Assembly: GCF_002930645.1 (NCBI RefSeq)
Contig: NZ_PSNW01000007.1
Coordinates: forward strand, 225,792 to 249,791
DNA length: 24,000 nt
Source: Solimonas fluminis
GTDB taxonomy: Bacteria > Pseudomonadota > Gammaproteobacteria > Nevskiales > Nevskiaceae
Reading direction: 5' to 3'
Made by a program: the position numbers and the translations under genes
Shown: positions 3,731-9,834 of the stretch, piece after piece
Layout of the letters: every line of letters begins with the position of its first letter
How positions within the stretch are numbered: position 1 is the first letter of the stretch
The notes under the pieces: model-generated
The model's input: the letters and a program-made list of their open reading frames with translations, nothing else
What the model was told of the DNA's origin: nothing
The model's database searches: none

Positions 3731-4041
3731 GCAACTCGCGCATGGCGCGTGGGAATCCGGCGGCAACGGCGATGACGGGCCGCCGATTCGGGCGCTGAAG
3801 CTCCGCCTGGACCGCATCGGAAACCTGCGGCGGTTCATCGGCGCGGGGCCGTCGCCAGCCCGATCCAGCGCATCGGGGTCGCCAACGGCGTAGCCGCCCC
3901 CGTGCGCGCATCGCGTGGGGGGCCTGGTGCGCGGGCCCGGCACGTCCTTCATGCGGATCACGGCGCGCGCCCGCTTCTTCCGGACCCGGATGGCGCGGAT
4001 CGTGTCCATGGCCCCGGCCTTGCCGCCGGGCCGAGGCCGCG

Positions 4042-4080
4042 CCATGCGCCCGCGCCGGGGGCGCATGGGTTCGTGCTTTT
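4042..4080 (+). terminator. Possible intrinsic terminator / insulating hairpin upstream of the TetR cassette
   Basis: A perfect 10-bp inverted repeat, CCATGCGCCC (4042-4051) / GGGCGCATGG (4059-4068), has a 7-nt loop. It is followed by gttcgtgCTTTT (T-run at 4077-4080). It lies 316 nt after the nearest upstream stop, so its role is uncertain. Confidence 0.3.
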
Positions 4081-4122
4081 CCCCTGGGGAAGCCTGCAGG
4101 GAGGAACTGCAGCCCCATTTTG

Positions 4123-4149
4123 TTGACAATGTTAAGTTAATGCTGTCAA
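4123..4149 (+). promoter_or_regulatory. Palindromic operator (probable TetR autoregulatory site) overlapping a -35-like TTGACA
   Basis: TTGACAatgTTAAgTTAAtgcTGTCAA pairs at 10 of 13 positions around centre 4136. It is an AT-rich island in GC-rich DNA and ends 8 nt before the TetR ATG. The geometry TTGACA (4123-4128), 17 nt, TCAACT (4146-4151), 6 nt, A4158 would put the transcription start on the ATG. Confidence 0.45.
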
Positions 4150-4157
4150 CTTAATGT

Positions 4158-4835
4158 ATGGCCAGAAAGAAATTCCCGGACGAGGTGCGCGCGCGCAAGC
4201 GTGACGAAATCCTCGATGTCGCCATGACGGTATTCGAGACCGATGGCCTGGACGCATTGAGCTTTCGGCGCCTGGCCGACGGCATGGACCTGAGCCACTC
4301 CGCGCCGTATCGCTACTTCGCCAGCAAGGAGGCGCTGGTCAACGCGCTGCGCGCCCGCGCCTACCGCTGGATCGAGCGCGAGATGCTGGATGCCATCGCC
4401 GGCATCCGCGATCCGGAACAGCAGCTGGAAGCCTTGGCGGCCGCGTACATCCGCTCCGGCCTGGCGCGGCCGCATCGCTACGCGCTGATGTTCTTCAACC
4501 TCAATGATGCCGCCACGCTGCGCGACTTTCCGGAGCTGGAAGCCGCCAAGCGCGATGCGCTGGACGTGTGCACGCGGGTGATTGCGGCCGGACAGCAGCA
4601 TGGTGATTTTCCCAGGACCATCGACCCGCTCACCGCCGCGCACCTGTTCTGGATGGGCGCGCATGGCCTGGTGTCGCTGCAGGTGGCCGGGCAGTTCGTG
4701 ATGGGTCGCGAGGTGCAGCAGCTGGCGCCCGCGCTGATCCAGACGCTGCGCACGGGCATGGACCATTTCAAACCGACCGCCAGGCCTAGGCCCATGAGCA
4801 AGGCAGCGGGAGCAAAGGAGAGATCTCGTGGCTGA
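4158..4835 (+). CDS. TetR/AcrR-family transcriptional repressor
   Basis: 225-aa ORF. The N-terminus RKRDEILDVAMTVFETDGLDALSFRRLADGMDLSHSAPYRYFASKEALVNAL is a canonical TetR_N HTH. There is no Shine-Dalgarno before the ATG (possible leaderless mRNA). Confidence 0.9.
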   Translation: MARKKFPDEVRARKRDEILDVAMTVFETDGLDALSFRRLADGMDLSHSAPYRYFASKEALVNALRARAYRWIEREMLDAIAGIRDPEQQLEALAAAYIRSGLARPHRYALMFFNLNDAATLRDFPELEAAKRDALDVCTRVIAAGQQHGDFPRTIDPLTAAHLFWMGAHGLVSLQVAGQFVMGREVQQLAPALIQTLRTGMDHFKPTARPRPMSKAAGAKERSRG

Positions 4836-5775
4836 GAGCGAACCATCCGCCGGGCACCGCAGCAAGATCGTGCCGCTGCCCAGGCGCGTTCCCTTCCAGT
4901 TCCCGGACGATGTGCAGCCGCGCTGGAAGGCGTCCGACCCGGAATTCTGCGCCATGGTCAACGGCGCTTCGCTGAGCATGCCGTATCTGGAGCCGTTCCT
5001 GATCCGCACCGTACGCGAGGCCAGTGCCGGCATCGACGACGCGTTCCTGCAGGCGTCCGCAAGCGCCTTCAATCAGCAGGAGCAGCAGCACTTCCAGACG
5101 CATCGCCGCTTCAATGAGCTGCTCAAGGCCAAGGGCTACGCCGAGCTGGCCCGCATCGAGCAGGACATGCAGGCCTACTACACGCGCATGGCCCGCAAAA
5201 GCCTGCGCACGCGCATGGCCTACACCGCCGGTTTCGAAGCCATGACCCTGGGGGTGACGCGCTGGCTGGTGGAAAACCGCGTGCGCCTGTTCGGTGGCGG
5301 CGATACGCGGGTGGCGTCCTTCATCCTGTGGCATTTCGTCGAGGAGTCGGAGCACAAATGTGTGGCGCACGACATCTATGGGGCAGCCTTCGGCTCCGGC
5401 CCCGGCGCCTATTTCGCGCGCATGCTGGGGGTGTTTCACGGCTCGCTGAGCGTGATGCGGTTTTCCATGCGCGGCTACAAGGCGATCCTGCAGAAGGATG
5501 GCCTTTGGCGCAGCCTGCGCTCGCGCCTGCGCCTGGCCGCGCACCTGGGTTCCTTCGTGCGCACCGTGGCGCCGTATCTGCTGCGCGCCACGCTGCCGGG
5601 CCACCATCCGCGCCGCGAGCCCGATCCACAATGGGTGCAGGACTGGATCGCCGGCTATGCCGCGAATCCGCGCGACACCGCGCCGCTGCTCGATACCACG
5701 CATCCGCTGATGCCGGTCCCGTTCCAACCCTTGCCGTCACCACCGCGCGCGGCAACGACCGTGCATCGTTTGTAA
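4828..5775 (+). CDS. PF10118-like 'predicted metal-dependent hydrolase' family protein (residue pattern also compatible with a diiron-carboxylate site)
   Basis: 315-aa ORF. GTG start at 4828 with AAGGAG at 4815-4820, overlapping the TetR stop by 8 nt. SLSMPYLEPFLIRTV...FNQQEQQHFQTHRRFNELL...ILWHFVEESEHKCVAHD resembles the conserved blocks of the Metal_hydrol family as I remember them. Confidence 0.7.
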   Translation: MAESEPSAGHRSKIVPLPRRVPFQFPDDVQPRWKASDPEFCAMVNGASLSMPYLEPFLIRTVREASAGIDDAFLQASASAFNQQEQQHFQTHRRFNELLKAKGYAELARIEQDMQAYYTRMARKSLRTRMAYTAGFEAMTLGVTRWLVENRVRLFGGGDTRVASFILWHFVEESEHKCVAHDIYGAAFGSGPGAYFARMLGVFHGSLSVMRFSMRGYKAILQKDGLWRSLRSRLRLAAHLGSFVRTVAPYLLRATLPGHHPRREPDPQWVQDWIAGYAANPRDTAPLLDTTHPLMPVPFQPLPSPPRAATTVHRL

Positions 5776-5799
5776 CAGCCACTTTCGGGGAGTAGCCAC

Positions 5800-6285
5800 A
5801 TGAGCAGCCACGACGAACTCAAGCCTTGTCGCCAGCAACTGGTCGGTCACGGTGCGCTGATGATCTTCTGCGCCGGCGTGATCGGCTTCGGCTTCCTGTT
5901 CTTCCTGATCGGCAGCATCAAGCTCTGGCCGATTCCCGGCGAGATCGACATCAAGCTGCCCGGCAGCTATGACGACTGGCGCATGGCGCACATGGAGGCG
6001 GTGGTCAACGGCGCGATCATGTGGATCATGGCCGCGATCCTGCCGCTGCTGCCGTTCTCGCCCGCCGGCCAGCGGCGTGCCGCCCACGGCATGATCGTCG
6101 TCGCCTGGACTTTCGTCATCGCTTCGGCCATGAAGCCGCTGTTCCCCAACAGCCGCGGCCTGGCGGCCAGTGACCTCGTCAGCAACAACATCGTGTTCGG
6201 CCTGTTCTACGTGGGAGTGGTGCTGGTGATGCTGATCATGGGCCTGATCGCGTATCGCTCGCTGCGCGGCGACAAGGCCGCCTGA
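5800..6285 (+). CDS. Styrene-oxide isomerase (StyC/SOI)-like small haem-binding integral membrane protein
   Basis: 161-aa ORF with about 4 TM segments and GGGGAG at 5787-5792. It aligns along its whole length with Pseudomonas StyC as recalled: GHGALMIFCAGVIGFGF vs GHGILMIFCTLLFGVGL; IPGEIDIKLPGSYDDWRMAHMEAVVNGAIM vs IPGYIIEFHVPGSPEGWARAHSGPALNGMMV; NSRGL vs NRGL. The equivalents of the haem-ligand His (H64, codon 5989-5991) and Asn (N70, 6007-6009) are conserved with identical spacing. Confidence 0.65.
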   Translation: MSSHDELKPCRQQLVGHGALMIFCAGVIGFGFLFFLIGSIKLWPIPGEIDIKLPGSYDDWRMAHMEAVVNGAIMWIMAAILPLLPFSPAGQRRAAHGMIVVAWTFVIASAMKPLFPNSRGLAASDLVSNNIVFGLFYVGVVLVMLIMGLIAYRSLRGDKAA

Positions 6286-6329
6286 GGCGATAAGCCTCAC
6301 CTGGTCTCGCCGGCGCCGGATTCCGGCCG

Positions 6330-6429
6330 CGCGCGCCTGCGGCGGCTGACGACCTCGGGCGCCAGGCGGCTGCCGCAGCAGGGGCCGGCGGAGGTGGCGA
6401 AAGCGGTGCTGGAGTTCCTGGTGGGCTGA
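6330..6429 (+). pseudogene. Decayed 3' fragment of an alpha/beta-hydrolase paralogous to 2863-3726
   Basis: 6301-6429 translates to ...GARRLPQQGPAEVAKAVLEFLVG*, compared with ...DAKLLPQEEKPAEVAKAVLEFLAA* in the intact gene. Nucleotide similarity continues upstream (ggctgacgacctcgggcgccaggcggctgccgcag vs ggtgacgatcgcggatgcgaagctgctgccgcag) with an indel. The open frame from 6286 has no start codon. The 5' boundary is approximate. Confidence 0.6.
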
Positions 6430-6447: not shown

Positions 6448-7497
6448 CTAGCCACGCAGCCGGTATTCGCCCGGCGGCAGGCCGGTCCAAGTCTTGAACG
6501 CGGCGGTGAAGGCGCTCTGGCCGCTGTAGCCCAGCAGCATCGCGATGTCGCCCAGCCCCAGTCCGGGGTCGGCAAGGTACTGCAGCGCCAGCTCGCGCCG
6601 CTGCTGCGCGAGCAGGTCGGCGTAGGAGTGCCCCTCTGCCTCCAGCCGCCGCCGCAGCGTGCGGTCGCTCAGGCCCAGCAGGCCGGCCACCTCGGCGGAG
6701 GACGGGCTGCCATGCGGCAGGCGCTGGCGGATGGCGCCGGCCACGCGCGGCGCCAGCCCCGTCCCGCGGATCTCGCGCAGCCGCTCGCGCGCCTGCTGCT
6801 CCATCAGCCCGCGCAGTTCCTCGTCGTGCTGCACCAGCGGCGTGGCGAACAGGCCGACGTCGAAGCTCAATGCATTGTCCGGCTCGTCGAATCGCAGCGG
6901 GCAGCCGAAGAAGCGCTCGTAGGGCTGCAGGCCGGCGGGACGCGGATGCTGGAAGCAGGCGCCGAGCAGTTCGCCGCGGATGCCGCTGATCCAGCGGCCG
7001 AAGGCGAGCCAGCCGGCGACGATGGCCTCGTTGACCGGCCGCATGCGCGCCACGTCGGCGGCGCCGGACTGCCAGGCCAGGCGCACCTGCCGCCCCTGCA
7101 CCGTCACCCGCGTGCTGCCGCCGTCGTAGACCAGGCCTTCGTAGCGGGGGATCAGCGCCACCGCCTCGCCGAGGGTGCTGCAGCTCATCGCGGCATAGCC
7201 CAGGGCGCTGAAGGTCCGCGGCCGCACCTGCATGCCCATGTGCAGGCCGATGGAGTCGTCGCCGCTGAGTTCCTGCGCCAGGTCGAACAGGCGCAGCAGC
7301 CCGGCGATGTCGAGGCGCCAGGCCGGGTCGGACAGGCGCTCCGGCAGAAGGGCCGCACGCTGCAGCAGGCGCTCGCGCCCGGCACCCTGCGCCACCGCCG
7401 CATCGAGCAGGGCCTGCACATAGGCGGCCGATACCGAGCCCAGGGCGAGCCCGCCCTGGCCGGCTTTCTCAAAACCCTGGCCGTCCGTCGCTACCAC
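6448..7497 (-). CDS. AraC-family transcriptional regulator (AraC-type ligand-binding N-domain + HTH)
   Basis: 349-aa ORF with a GTG start at 7497. The C-terminus LSDRTLRRRLEAEGHSYADLLAQQRRELALQYLADPGLGLGDIAMLLGYSGQSAFTAAFKTWTGLPPGEYR is a canonical AraC HTH. The gene is divergent (56-bp gap) from 7554-9834. Confidence 0.85.
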   Translation of the reverse strand: MVATDGQGFEKAGQGGLALGSVSAAYVQALLDAAVAQGAGRERLLQRAALLPERLSDPAWRLDIAGLLRLFDLAQELSGDDSIGLHMGMQVRPRTFSALGYAAMSCSTLGEAVALIPRYEGLVYDGGSTRVTVQGRQVRLAWQSGAADVARMRPVNEAIVAGWLAFGRWISGIRGELLGACFQHPRPAGLQPYERFFGCPLRFDEPDNALSFDVGLFATPLVQHDEELRGLMEQQARERLREIRGTGLAPRVAGAIRQRLPHGSPSSAEVAGLLGLSDRTLRRRLEAEGHSYADLLAQQRRELALQYLADPGLGLGDIAMLLGYSGQSAFTAAFKTWTGLPPGEYRLRG

Positions 7498-7553: not shown

Positions 7554-8192
7554 ATGCCGCATGCCGAGTCCGCCGCCCTTGCCCTGGGCATCCTGCGCGA
7601 TCCCGCGCAGTTCAAATGGTATGTGATTCCGCTGCTGCTGCTCACCCTCCATGTCTATGCCCAGCAGGTCCATGCGCGGCGCTGGCCGGTGGTGCTGGGC
7701 GGCCTGGCGTTCTGGCTGATGGACTGGATCAACGAGATCTGGAACGCGCTGGTGTTCCACTTCACGCAGTTCGCGCCGGTCTGGGGTGCACCGGGCGATA
7801 CCGCCTTCCTGATCCTGATCGGCCTCAACATCGAGATCAGCCTGATGTTCGCCGTGTTCGGCGTCACCGCGATCCTGCTGCTGCCGGCGGACCCCAGGCT
7901 GAAGCTGTTCGGCATCAACAACCGACTGCTGGCCGCGGCGCTCAACTCGGTCCTGGCGGTCGGCGTGGAGTGCTGGCTCAACCACGCCGGCGCACTGACC
8001 TGGGAATACCGCTGGTGGAACGGCTCGGCGCCCTGGCTGATCTGGCTGATCGGCTACCTGCCGTTCTTCCTGGTCGCCTACTGGGTGCACGACCTGCCGG
8101 ACAGGCGCCGGCAGCTGCGCGCGGTCGGCACGCTGGGCGGCATCGTGGCCGGCAGCCTGCTGCTGTTCGGCGCCCTGCTGGGCTGGATCTGA
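7554..8192 (+). CDS. Integral membrane protein (about 6 TM, Trp-rich), function unknown
   Basis: 212-aa ORF with hydrophobic segments (VIPLLLLTLHVYA, VVLGGLAFWLMDWI, AFLILIGLNIEISLMFAVFGVTAILLL, LLAAALNSVLAVGVECWL, WLIWLIGYLPFFLVAYWV, LGGIVAGSLLLFGALLGWI). Its stop is 1 nt before the next gene's start. I recognise no family. Confidence 0.75.
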   Translation: MPHAESAALALGILRDPAQFKWYVIPLLLLTLHVYAQQVHARRWPVVLGGLAFWLMDWINEIWNALVFHFTQFAPVWGAPGDTAFLILIGLNIEISLMFAVFGVTAILLLPADPRLKLFGINNRLLAAALNSVLAVGVECWLNHAGALTWEYRWWNGSAPWLIWLIGYLPFFLVAYWVHDLPDRRRQLRAVGTLGGIVAGSLLLFGALLGWI

Positions 8193-8193
8193 C

Positions 8194-9834
8194 GTGCGCC
8201 GCCTTCCCGCGTTCGCCGCCGCCCTGCTGCTCGCCGCCTGCGGCAGCAGCACGGCCCCCGATGCCGGCCACGGCACGCCGCCGCCCTTCCAGCCGGGCCC
8301 CGACGCGCCGTTCGCGACCATCGCCGACCCCTCGCTGTCGCTGCCGCTCTGCATCCTGCCGGCCGGCACGATCGGCGTGCCGGACCTCGTGGTCGACCCG
8401 CTGCCGATCCCGGACCGCGGCAACGGCCTGGCCGCCGATGCCGCCAGCGAGGCCCCGGCCGCGCTGCCCGCGCAGCTCGCGCTGCGCAACGACCGCGGGA
8501 CCTACAACCGCCGCTACCAGTTCGCGCTGGACGAAGGGGCGATCTGGTTCAAGTCCAACACCGCCGTGACCGGCATCGAGCAGCCCTGGGCGCGGCTGGC
8601 GATGCCGGGCTGCCTCGCCGGCACCGTCATCGGCATCGCCGTGGACGACGACGAGCTCACCGCGATCCGCGCCGATGGCGCGATCTACGGCATGGACAAC
8701 GCCTTCAAGGACTACGCGCTGTTCAACTGGAGCTCGCGCTGGGGACCGCCGCTGTGGACCGGCACCGGTCACCGCATCCCGGCGGACTACCTGGCCTGGT
8801 CCTGGAGCGTGATCTCGCCGGCCGAGGACCAGCACTGGACCGACCCGGCCGGCAACCTGCACACCATCGGCAGCGGCAAGGTCTCGCACATCTGGCTGCT
8901 GCGCAGCGGCGGCCAGCGCTACACCTACGTCGATCCCTGGCTGCCGCGCGACGACAGCTACGAGATGTGCGGCCCGCTGCGCGGCCGCTACCGCGGCGTG
9001 AATCTCTCGGCCAGCGGCTCCACGGTCTTCACCGTCAACCGCTACGGCGATCTCTACACGCGCAACTACGACTTCGACCTCTGCGGCGCCGACCCGCTGT
9101 TCTTCGACTACGCCTACGAGGACCAGCGCGGGGTCTCCAACCCGAAGATCCAGCTGCCGACCTTCGAATGGCAGCGCCAGCCGAAGATCCCTGGCACGAT
9201 CACCCACGACATCAGCGTGCACAAGAGCGGCATCGACATGCTGACGCGCAGCCTGCGCGTCGAGGGCCGCGATGCCCGGGGCCATACCGGCTACTGGGAG
9301 AAGGATTACCGCGAACTGGACGCCCGGGCCTGGAAGTTCGTGCGCACCGACCAGCCGCTGCGCGGCACGGTGCTGGACAACCGCCCCCGCGACAGTTCCC
9401 TGGACGACGCCGGCCCCGGCGAGGACCGCTATTACGCGCGCAATCTCGCGCAGCTGCCGTCGCTGGCGGCGCACCCCCAGGTCGCCGGCGATGCCGACTG
9501 GGCGGGCGAACTGCCGGACTTCAACTTCTACTGCTCGCCGGCGCGGCTGCGCATCCGCTTCTCGCCCACCGAGGACCTGGAGCTGCTGCTGCACCACACC
9601 GACACGATCCGCCAGACCGAGCGCGGCCGCGGGCTGGACCAGCAGCCGCGCGCCTTCGTCGGCAGCATCGAGATTCCGGAACCGACCTTTGCACGGCTGG
9701 ATTCGCTGCCGCCGAAGTCGCAGCAGTTCATCCAGCTCTACCTGGACGGGCGGCGCCACACCAGCGTCAGGCTCAGCGGCGTCGAGGACCGCATCAGCGT
9801 CACCAGCTTCGGCTGGGAGTTCGAGCGCCCCTGA
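8194..9834 (+). CDS. Large lipoprotein, function unknown
   Basis: 546-aa ORF. GTG at 8194 lies 1 nt after the upstream TGA (translational coupling). The N-terminus MRRLPAFAAALLLAACGSS has a signal peptide and lipobox L-A-A-C, with Gly at +2. The mature part is rich in W/Y/D/R with recurring short blocks (IWFKSN, AIYGMDN, IWLLRSGG, LYTRNYDFD, GYWEKDY). I recognise no domain. Confidence 0.8.
   Translation: MRRLPAFAAALLLAACGSSTAPDAGHGTPPPFQPGPDAPFATIADPSLSLPLCILPAGTIGVPDLVVDPLPIPDRGNGLAADAASEAPAALPAQLALRNDRGTYNRRYQFALDEGAIWFKSNTAVTGIEQPWARLAMPGCLAGTVIGIAVDDDELTAIRADGAIYGMDNAFKDYALFNWSSRWGPPLWTGTGHRIPADYLAWSWSVISPAEDQHWTDPAGNLHTIGSGKVSHIWLLRSGGQRYTYVDPWLPRDDSYEMCGPLRGRYRGVNLSASGSTVFTVNRYGDLYTRNYDFDLCGADPLFFDYAYEDQRGVSNPKIQLPTFEWQRQPKIPGTITHDISVHKSGIDMLTRSLRVEGRDARGHTGYWEKDYRELDARAWKFVRTDQPLRGTVLDNRPRDSSLDDAGPGEDRYYARNLAQLPSLAAHPQVAGDADWAGELPDFNFYCSPARLRIRFSPTEDLELLLHHTDTIRQTERGRGLDQQPRAFVGSIEIPEPTFARLDSLPPKSQQFIQLYLDGRRHTSVRLSGVEDRISVTSFGWEFERP

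Follow-up and report, generated by a model that had tools for sequence, protein, structure and literature searches.

A 24,000-nucleotide stretch of the Solimonas fluminis genome (contig NZ_PSNW01000007.1, positions 225,792 to 249,791 of the forward strand; hereafter the window, whose own numbering is used below unless another locus is named) carries a 2.2-kb cassette consisting of three genes and a 27-bp operator. The genes encode a TetR regulator, a protein of the Pfam family PF10118 and a membrane protein related to styrene oxide isomerase (SOI). We propose that this cassette is an inducible two-step module, in which one lipophilic small molecule would be oxygenated and then rearranged in a heme-mediated reaction, and we give this reading a probability of about 0.45. 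The pairing of PF10118 with an SOI-like gene is apparently undescribed, as no description of it was found in the searchable literature, and it apparently represents a divergent SOI clade with a dedicated diiron partner.

To our knowledge, SOI is the only natural enzyme for the Meinwald rearrangement. Its mechanism, in which heme serves as a Lewis acid, was solved only in 2024, and the enzyme is sought after for biocatalytic cascades. A conserved SOI clade with a rewired distal pocket and an oxygenase partner of its own would extend both the chemistry and the range of substrates known for the family. If a broader and more doubtful form of the proposal, described below, is correct, heme-catalyzed Meinwald-type chemistry would be a general bacterial strategy rather than a styrene-specific curiosity, and a first function would be assigned to PF10118, a large family of "metal-dependent hydrolases" whose label has been propagated in thousands of genome annotations, including those of plasmids from Acinetobacter clinical isolates. 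The TetR protein and its operator could in addition serve as a biosensor for the corresponding ligand. Cultured strains of Solimonas, Zavarzinia, Sinimarinibacterium, Nevskia and Flagellatimonas possess the cassette, which is small and self-regulated, so that direct tests are feasible.

Conservation of the PF10118 and SOI-like gene pair

The open reading frame (ORF) calls placed the TetR gene at 4158-4835 (ATG start), the PF10118 gene at 4828-5775 (GTG start, 315 aa) and the SOI-like gene at 5800-6285 (ATG start, 161 aa), all on the plus strand. The first two genes overlap by 8 nt (4828-4835), and the ribosome-binding site AGGAG of the PF10118 gene (4816-4820) is read inside the end of the TetR gene. 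The PF10118 and SOI-like genes are separated by 24 nt (5776-5799), within which the ribosome-binding site GGGGAG of the SOI-like gene is found at 5787-5792. An earlier note, written from the letters of the window, had described the three genes with this overlap, this gap and the GGGGAG motif, and its coordinates all match the ORF calls and the sequence.

The same note had named co-occurrence of the two genes in other genomes as a test that could refute its proposal of an oxidation-rearrangement pair. A survey of one genome per species (GTDB) afforded 80 loci, 78 of which were assessable. They come from the Nevskiales (Solimonas, Algiphilus, Polycyclovorans, Sinimarinibacterium, Nevskia, Oceanococcus), the Cellvibrionales (Haliea, Halioglobus, Porticoccaceae, OM182, HTCC2143), Shewanella among the other Gammaproteobacteria, the Alphaproteobacteria Zavarzinia, Henriciella, Hellea and Erythrobacter, and, further afield, Myxococcota, Actinomycetota, Binatia and one spirochaete metagenome-assembled genome. 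The outcome favored the note: in 68 of the 78 loci, the SOI-like gene is immediately preceded by a PF10118 gene in the same orientation; the latter is divergent in 3 and absent from 7. The two genes are a median of 14 nt apart, and overlaps of 4 nt are frequent, an indication of translational coupling. Moreover, the distance matrices of the two proteins are correlated (Mantel r 0.66, p 0.001), a value to which shared phylogeny contributes.

When the flanking ORFs of the 80 loci were clustered, the sole other recurrent neighbor was a single upstream regulator, which belongs to the TetR type in 32 loci, to a MerR-type helix-turn-helix (HTH) protein with a MEDS sensor domain in 12 and to PadR in 10, while about 6 loci have a divergent AraC gene. 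The same enzyme pair would thus be controlled in other lineages by a PadR, MerR-type HTH-MEDS or AraC regulator. Other candidate partners, namely MAPEG, glutathione S-transferase (GST), FA_hydroxylase, SnoaL and DUF6351 proteins, alpha/beta hydrolases, AraC2, AF_1327 and a 546-aa protein, were rejected, as each was restricted to one lineage.

The gene order resembles that of styABCD, in which oxygenase genes directly precede styC: here, too, the gene of a predicted O2-activating enzyme stands immediately before an SOI-family gene on the same strand. The differences are considerable. The cassette has a one-gene predicted diiron protein in place of the two-component flavin epoxidase StyA/StyB, it contains no aldehyde dehydrogenase gene, its regulators are of the one-component type, and the pair is spread over many phyla rather than restricted to styrene degraders. 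In agreement with the earlier note, no StyA, StyB or StyD was detected among the window ORFs scanned, and none was detected in the 80 related loci.

Each gene also occurs without the other. TetR-SOI pairs lacking PF10118 are found in Oceanococcus and its relatives, and TetR-PF10118 pairs lacking an SOI gene are found in Acinetobacter, Tsukamurella and Mycolicibacterium (plasmids); this lone occurrence speaks against a solely structural or anchoring function of either protein. It would suit an explanation that we consider unlikely, parallel detoxification, in which two co-regulated enzymes act on the same class of reactive lipophilic compounds (e.g., lipid or xenobiotic epoxides, peroxides or electrophiles) without passing a product from one to the other. 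The regulators TetR, PadR, MerR-type HTH with MEDS, and AraC are typical of xenobiotic or stress sensing, and glutathione transferases are occasional neighbors (MAPEG in Solimonas aquatica; GST in loci L094 and L026). However, these neighbors are confined to one or two loci each, and co-regulation alone would not require linkage as tight as the 87% adjacency observed, with its frequent 4-nt overlaps.

The PF10118 protein as a candidate diiron oxygenase

The assignment of the 315-aa protein to PF10118, proposed in the earlier note, was confirmed by a Pfam match covering positions 2-245 of the 247-position model (E 2.4e-49, 168.7 bits vs. a cutoff of 33.2). The searchable literature yielded nothing on the family and no characterized member. 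The AlphaFold2 (AF2) model of the protein has a predicted local distance difference test (pLDDT) score of 91.9 and is all-helical. A Foldseek search of the PDB with this model returned diiron carboxylate proteins as all of its top 50 matches, with weak E-values of 0.09-0.5 and template modeling (TM) scores of 0.37-0.49. They comprise acyl-acyl carrier protein (acyl-ACP) desaturases, CmlI, the R2-like ligand-binding oxidase, the R2 subunit of ribonucleotide reductase and aldehyde-deformylating oxygenase; the best TM-scores (0.46-0.49) were obtained with CmlI. No hydrolase fold was present among the structural matches.

Alignment with lone paralogues from plasmids of Acinetobacter, Tsukamurella, Burkholderia and Mycolicibacterium revealed that the candidate metal ligands E55, E85xxH88, E137 and H169xxxE173xxH176 are invariant across paralogues of only 23-29% identity. 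Nearly half of all invariant columns are E55, E85, H88, E137, H169, E172/E173, E175 and H176. In the AF2 model, E55 falls in helix 38-66, E85 and H88 in helix 72-101, E137 in helix 126-149 and H169-H176 in helix 160-188, so that the four core helices together present the candidate ligands E / ExxH / E / ExxH. Written in full, the pattern E / ExxH / E / HxxxExxH would supply three histidines and four carboxylates, with an extra histidine on the helix of the second ExxH. The extra histidine at this place is a hallmark of the ferritin-like diiron N-oxygenases AurF and CmlI (bioRxiv 10.1101/2020.07.29.227702). The conservation of the ligands across distant paralogues is a stronger argument for a diiron site than the Foldseek matches. 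Because the ligand pattern matches that of diiron carboxylate proteins and the modeled fold resembles theirs, the label "predicted metal-dependent hydrolase" is most likely a misnomer, and the protein looks like an O2-activating diiron enzyme of the ferritin-like kind. The term "oxygenase-like" used in the earlier note is supported by the top 50 structural matches and by the invariant ligand set.

Comparison with the ferritin-like diiron enzymes (CmlI/AurF, acyl-ACP desaturases, R2-like oxidase) suggested a similar all-helical architecture with candidate ligands on four long helices and, for CmlI and AurF, the same complement of three histidines and four carboxylates. No similarity at the sequence or profile level was detectable, and the TM-scores remained at 0.37-0.49. 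The AurF/CmlI family PF11583 was not matched by the PF10118 protein at E-values up to 1, and an hhalign comparison of the PF10118 alignment with an AurF-like protein encoded nearby on a Mycolicibacterium plasmid was not significant.

Two alternatives bear on this protein. The first, which we regard as improbable, is nitrogen chemistry: the PF10118 protein would act as an AurF/CmlI-type N-oxygenase on an amine, and the heme protein would rearrange or dehydrate the N-O product (hydroxylamine- or oxime-like). Its appeal lies in the 3-His/4-carboxylate site with the additional histidine on core helix 4 and in the superposition of the model, which is best with CmlI among solved structures; on the other side, a sequence-level relation to AurF is missing, no amine-related genes lie nearby, and the SOI family is known for epoxide chemistry only. 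The second and still less probable alternative takes the family name at its word. A true hydrolase would hydrolyze a substrate that the pair then isomerizes, or would handle an ester or epoxide without O2. The Pfam name and the database annotations speak for it, but that name is a prediction, the modeled fold resembles diiron carboxylate proteins that activate O2, the ligand pattern is theirs as well, and no hydrolase is among the structural matches.

Neither a signal peptide nor a hydrophobic segment was identified in the PF10118 protein, and for this reason it should be cytoplasmic. Its C-terminal tail, PLLDTxxPxMPVPF, is kept in the SOI-linked proteins and is absent or poorly conserved in the lone paralogues. 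A paralogue of 28% identity, accompanied by a TetR gene and containing the same invariant metal ligands, was located on the Acinetobacter plasmid pTol5 (locus L087, 6977-8556), where it adjoins a cluster of AraC, ferredoxin, cytochrome P450 and FAD-reductase genes. The PF10118-TetR pair is widespread on Acinetobacter plasmids (54 records), including those of clinical A. baumannii.

The SOI-like protein and the proposed two-step route

The SOI-like protein aligned with positions 2-143 of the 147-position NCBIfam StyC model NF045734 (E 1.6e-13), in line with the end-to-end StyC alignment claimed in the earlier note. Its score of 50.9 bits is below the equivalog cutoff of 150, so that membership of the SOI family stood the profile check and identity as StyC did not. 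A sequence search of the PDB returned SOI only (8pnu, E 3.6e-12, and a second SOI entry), and the precomputed Pfam label is PF26512:SOI. The AF2 model (pLDDT 81.5) consists of four long helices, and its only Foldseek match was 8pnu_A (E 1.2e-6, TM-score 0.75/0.77, root-mean-square deviation 3.3 Å). The protein has four transmembrane helices and 28-32% identity to SOI. Like the SOIs of Pseudomonas sp. VLB120 (8PNU/8PNV) and Rhodococcus opacus (RoSOI1), it is a four-helix membrane protein in the size range of about 160-170 aa; unlike them, it lacks a six-residue insertion where the fourth transmembrane helix begins, and its gene is partnered by PF10118 instead of styABD.

In the SOI studied by cryo-EM, H58 is the axial heme ligand, the variants N64A and D95A are impaired, and N99A and Y103A are inactive (PMC11374702); in the Rhodococcus enzyme, the equivalent histidine and an arginine contacting a heme propionate matter (PMC12502698). 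These residues were mapped by aligning the protein with both solved SOIs and with two StyC proteins from Rhodococcus. H58, N64, R112 (R111 in RoSOI1) and W97 are all kept, as H64, N70, R119 and W103, respectively, whereas D95, N99 and Y103 are replaced by V101, F105 and S109. The substrate-positioning network D95/N99/Y103 is therefore not kept, and N70 is the only SOI pocket residue that is retained. Taken together, the protein is a genuine, if divergent, SOI-family member, it very probably binds heme, and it should not be filed as StyC.

Each of 27 subfamily members has H64, E66, N70, W103 and S109, and nearly every one has R119, which is kept in all aligned SOI-family sequences but one. The invariant E66 of the subfamily, a further difference from SOI, precedes N70 by four residues on the same helix, and helical periodicity implies that it may face the pocket of N70. 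If so, the distal side of the heme would carry Glu/Asn/Ser in place of the Ser/Asn/Tyr of SOI. The invariance of E66, N70 and S109 within the subfamily suggests that this pocket has been selected rather than has decayed, and such invariant polar residues argue for a catalytic heme protein.

A further reading, in which the 161-aa protein is simply a styrene oxide isomerase belonging to a styrene pathway with scattered genes, is highly improbable. Family membership and the kept heme ligands are what it has in its favor; the score is below the StyC cutoff, N99 and Y103 are missing, no StyA, StyB or StyD is encoded in the window or in the 80 related loci, and Zavarzinia possesses a characterized SOI as well as a separate, shorter paralogue beside PF10118. 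The Zavarzinia SOI of PMC12502698 was considered as a subfamily member and rejected, since its 26-residue N-terminal extension is missing from the subfamily's Zavarzinia protein (P0058). The latter, encoded next to PF10118, has no such extension and has extra residues at its C-terminus.

Another alternative, which we judge quite unlikely, is that the SOI-like protein is not an isomerase but the heme-b subunit of a two-subunit oxidase or oxygenase, anchoring it in the membrane or conducting electrons, with the PF10118 protein as the catalytic subunit. The module encodes no reductase, the residues of the SOI-like protein that are strictly conserved family-wide are the heme-binding ones, SOI has itself been proposed as a membrane anchor for partner enzymes (PMC12502698), and the PLLDTxxPxMPVPF tail distinguishes the SOI-linked PF10118 proteins from the lone paralogues. 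Against these points, the position of H58 in SOI and the periplasmic opening of the trimer would place the heme across the membrane from a cytoplasmic partner, and SOI-like genes without PF10118 exist, as do PF10118 genes without an SOI-like gene. Moreover, the heme of SOI has five ligands and an open sixth position, and dithionite did not reduce one of its spin species (PMC12502698).

For the two-step module, we envisage the following sequence of events. The TetR protein would bind the 27-bp palindrome over the -35 hexamer and repress the three-gene operon, as conservation of the site suggests, and repression would be lifted when the substrate or a related ligand appears. The cytoplasmic PF10118 enzyme would then activate O2 at the diiron site predicted from its structure and oxygenate the substrate, giving, for instance, an epoxide, a peroxide or an N- or O-oxygenated species. 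This membrane-soluble product would reach the SOI-family protein, a trimer by homology, in which the heme-b ligands are kept, Glu66, Asn70 and Ser109 would form the distal side in place of Ser, Asn and Tyr103, and hydrophobic residues stand for D95 and N99. There, ferric heme could serve as the Lewis acid in the rearrangement of a compound different from styrene oxide. In SOI, H58 closely follows periplasmic loop 1, and the trimer is open toward the periplasm (PMC11374702); the location of the heme near the periplasmic face favors a membrane-soluble intermediate over direct electron transfer. The oxygenase genes that directly precede styC in sty operons provide a precedent.

Several results weigh against the two-step module. 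Because N99 and Y103, whose alanine mutants are inactive in SOI, are replaced, Meinwald activity of the styrene oxide type cannot be assumed; the StyC equivalog score (50.9 vs. 150) points the same way, and the Meinwald step advanced in the earlier note stands unproven in view of these replacements and of V101 at the position of D95. For the PF10118 protein, sequence and profile searches of the PDB gave noise only, and the Foldseek E-values were weak (0.09-0.5). Clustering of the flanking ORFs of the 80 loci revealed no conserved reductase, ferredoxin or aldehyde dehydrogenase near the pair, and each gene is found without the other. A broader form of the proposal is more doubtful: the pair may constitute a widespread, unrecognized pathway in which a single-gene diiron oxygenase feeds a membrane heme Lewis-acid rearrangement enzyme with a Glu/Asn/Ser distal pocket. 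It is put forward just as tentatively that the substrates of such a pathway would be compounds that true SOI does not take, e.g., aliphatic or terpenoid epoxides, lipid peroxides or N-O compounds.

The entire SOI superfamily is small, as an exhaustive search of 1.84 billion cluster representatives returned only 146 clusters, and most of it is uncharacterized and has no link to styrene genes. In 87 full-length representatives, the histidine and the asparagine are almost universal and the D/N/Y triad is highly variable. Two groups make up the family, a Tyr-type one that contains the true SOIs and one characterized by the motif WRMAHLEG...N..AS; the subfamily studied here is an extreme member of the latter. 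Its nearest SOI clade, the AHLEG clade, consists of stand-alone genes mostly from soil metagenomes. None of 80 metagenome loci of this clade (L095-L174) has PF10118 as a neighbor of the SOI gene, and no conserved partner was found in them. The pairing with PF10118 is specific to the SOI-like subfamily, and a family-wide rule of SOI-oxygenase pairing was dropped on account of these 80 loci, which have neither PF10118 nor a constant partner.

About 18 of the 80 surveyed loci (L004-L083), many of them from Nevskiales and some from Cellvibrionales, encode a second SOI-family paralogue immediately after the SOI-like gene. This paralogue contains the motif TGWGN..FF, in which N99 is kept and Y103 is replaced by Phe, and it is located at 6491-7018 in S. 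aquatica (L004) and at 8491-9006 in L092. The window, whose homology to S. aquatica ends at 6342, lacks this paralogue. In L092, from Flagellatimonas centrodinii, an FA_hydroxylase gene (PF04116; 9126-9968) follows the TetR, PF10118 and two SOI-family genes on the same strand, an arrangement seen in this locus only. A TetR gene with the same operator followed by an SOI-like gene, without PF10118, was observed at 5742-8483 of L084/L085 (Oceanococcus atlanticus) and at 7234-8480 of L094. The Oceanococcus locus also has a divergent operon of another SOI paralogue and a double SnoaL (NTF2-like) protein, and a GST gene is convergent to the SOI-like gene in L094 and L026.

Operator, ancestry and surroundings of the cassette

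The TetR protein exceeded the Pfam cutoffs for both TetR_N (PF00440, 43 bits) and TetR_C_33 (PF13305, 62.8 bits). Directly upstream of its gene, the core operator palindrome occupies 27 bp at 4123-4149 (TTGACAATGTTAAGTTAATGCTGTCAA), with no strand assigned, and is built around TTGACA-N15-TGTCAA, its left arm being a perfect -35 hexamer TTGACA. The sequence agrees on either strand with the cross-phylum consensus TTGACAnnRTTAAnTTAAYnnYGTYAA, which bears out the palindromic, AT-rich operator recognized in the earlier note. This motif stands in front of some 30 TetR orthologues from Gamma-, Alpha- and Deltaproteobacteria, Myxococcota and Actinomycetota, its exact consensus is present in 12 loci, and it is unique in the window, with 0 chance matches expected. 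From this conservation, we infer that TetR binds 4123-4149 and responds to a ligand. An extended imperfect palindrome, likewise without strand, covers 4116-4156 with 20-nt arms (4116-4135 and 4137-4156; 75% complementary) and ends 1 nt before the TetR start codon.

The TetR start lies 8 nt past the operator, compared with 6-12 nt in the roughly 30 orthologous loci, and the start sequence ATGGC(C/A) is kept in almost all aligned TetR loci. No Shine-Dalgarno sequence precedes it in the window or in most of the aligned lineages. As this start without a Shine-Dalgarno sequence comes right after the operator, our guess is that the TetR-led mRNA could be leaderless. No sigma-70 consensus promoter, consensus -10 hexamer or credible terminator was detected around the cassette. 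The arrangement matches that of autoregulated TetR operons in its N-terminal HTH, C-terminal ligand domain and 27-bp palindrome over a TTGACA -35 element, and differs from it in that the repressor is the first gene of its own operon, not divergent from it, and starts without a Shine-Dalgarno sequence.

The same cassette is present in the sister species S. aquatica, whose SOI-like protein is 91% identical to that of the window. A blastn comparison of this locus (L004) with the window showed 84-88% DNA identity confined to a block at 3807-6342 (plus strand), outside which the flanks are non-homologous. The block fits a horizontally mobile, self-contained unit, because the homology is limited to the cassette and the operator travels with TetR across phyla; the low GC content of the cassette also speaks for mobility. 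The GC content of the cassette is 65.3% against a window mean of 70.7%, the lowest of any 2.2-kb stretch in the window; the GC contrast pointed out in the earlier note is thus real but modest, and the figures of 55-63% and 80% given there did not hold. The GC content at third codon positions is 0.83 for the TetR gene and 0.85 for the PF10118 gene, compared with 0.88-0.96 for other window genes, and that of the SOI-like gene (0.907) is within this range.

The 430-nt "intergenic" stretch upstream of TetR was found to hold a frameshifted remnant of a gene of MAPEG, a membrane glutathione-transferase family. The decayed copy lies at 3807-4060 (plus strand), as delimited by an alignment with S. aquatica that contains indels, and the gene is intact directly upstream of TetR in that species (L004, ORF 3767-4174; PF01124, E 1.3e-16). 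By tblastn, a match of 39% identity extending over 99 aa was obtained in the near-identical contigs L001 and L003.

The genes on either side, two alpha/beta-hydrolase genes upstream and AraC, AF_1327 and 546-aa protein genes downstream, are not linked to the cassette elsewhere. The hydrocarbon/epoxide neighborhood invoked in the earlier note is accordingly not conserved with the cassette, as the S. aquatica DNA homology covers 3807-6342 only. Scanning of the rest of the window revealed mostly housekeeping-type genes and a few of no assigned family; no Rfam RNA and no match to an anti-phage defense family was found in it. The downstream genes form a unit at 7554-9834 (plus strand), in which an AF_1327-family protein (PF27271, 212 aa) and the 546-aa protein, which matched no family, are encoded 1 nt apart; this unit is divergent from its own AraC gene at 6448-7497. 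At the edge of the window, an ORF of 32 codons on the minus strand (96-1) begins with MNTLEATRGEAAAWRDGKRWWWLLSPALPLLG and runs off the window; its product may resemble the N-terminus of the alkane hydroxylase AlkB. A tblastn search against plasmids found nothing for this ORF, and it is divergent from an AraC gene at 209-1255.

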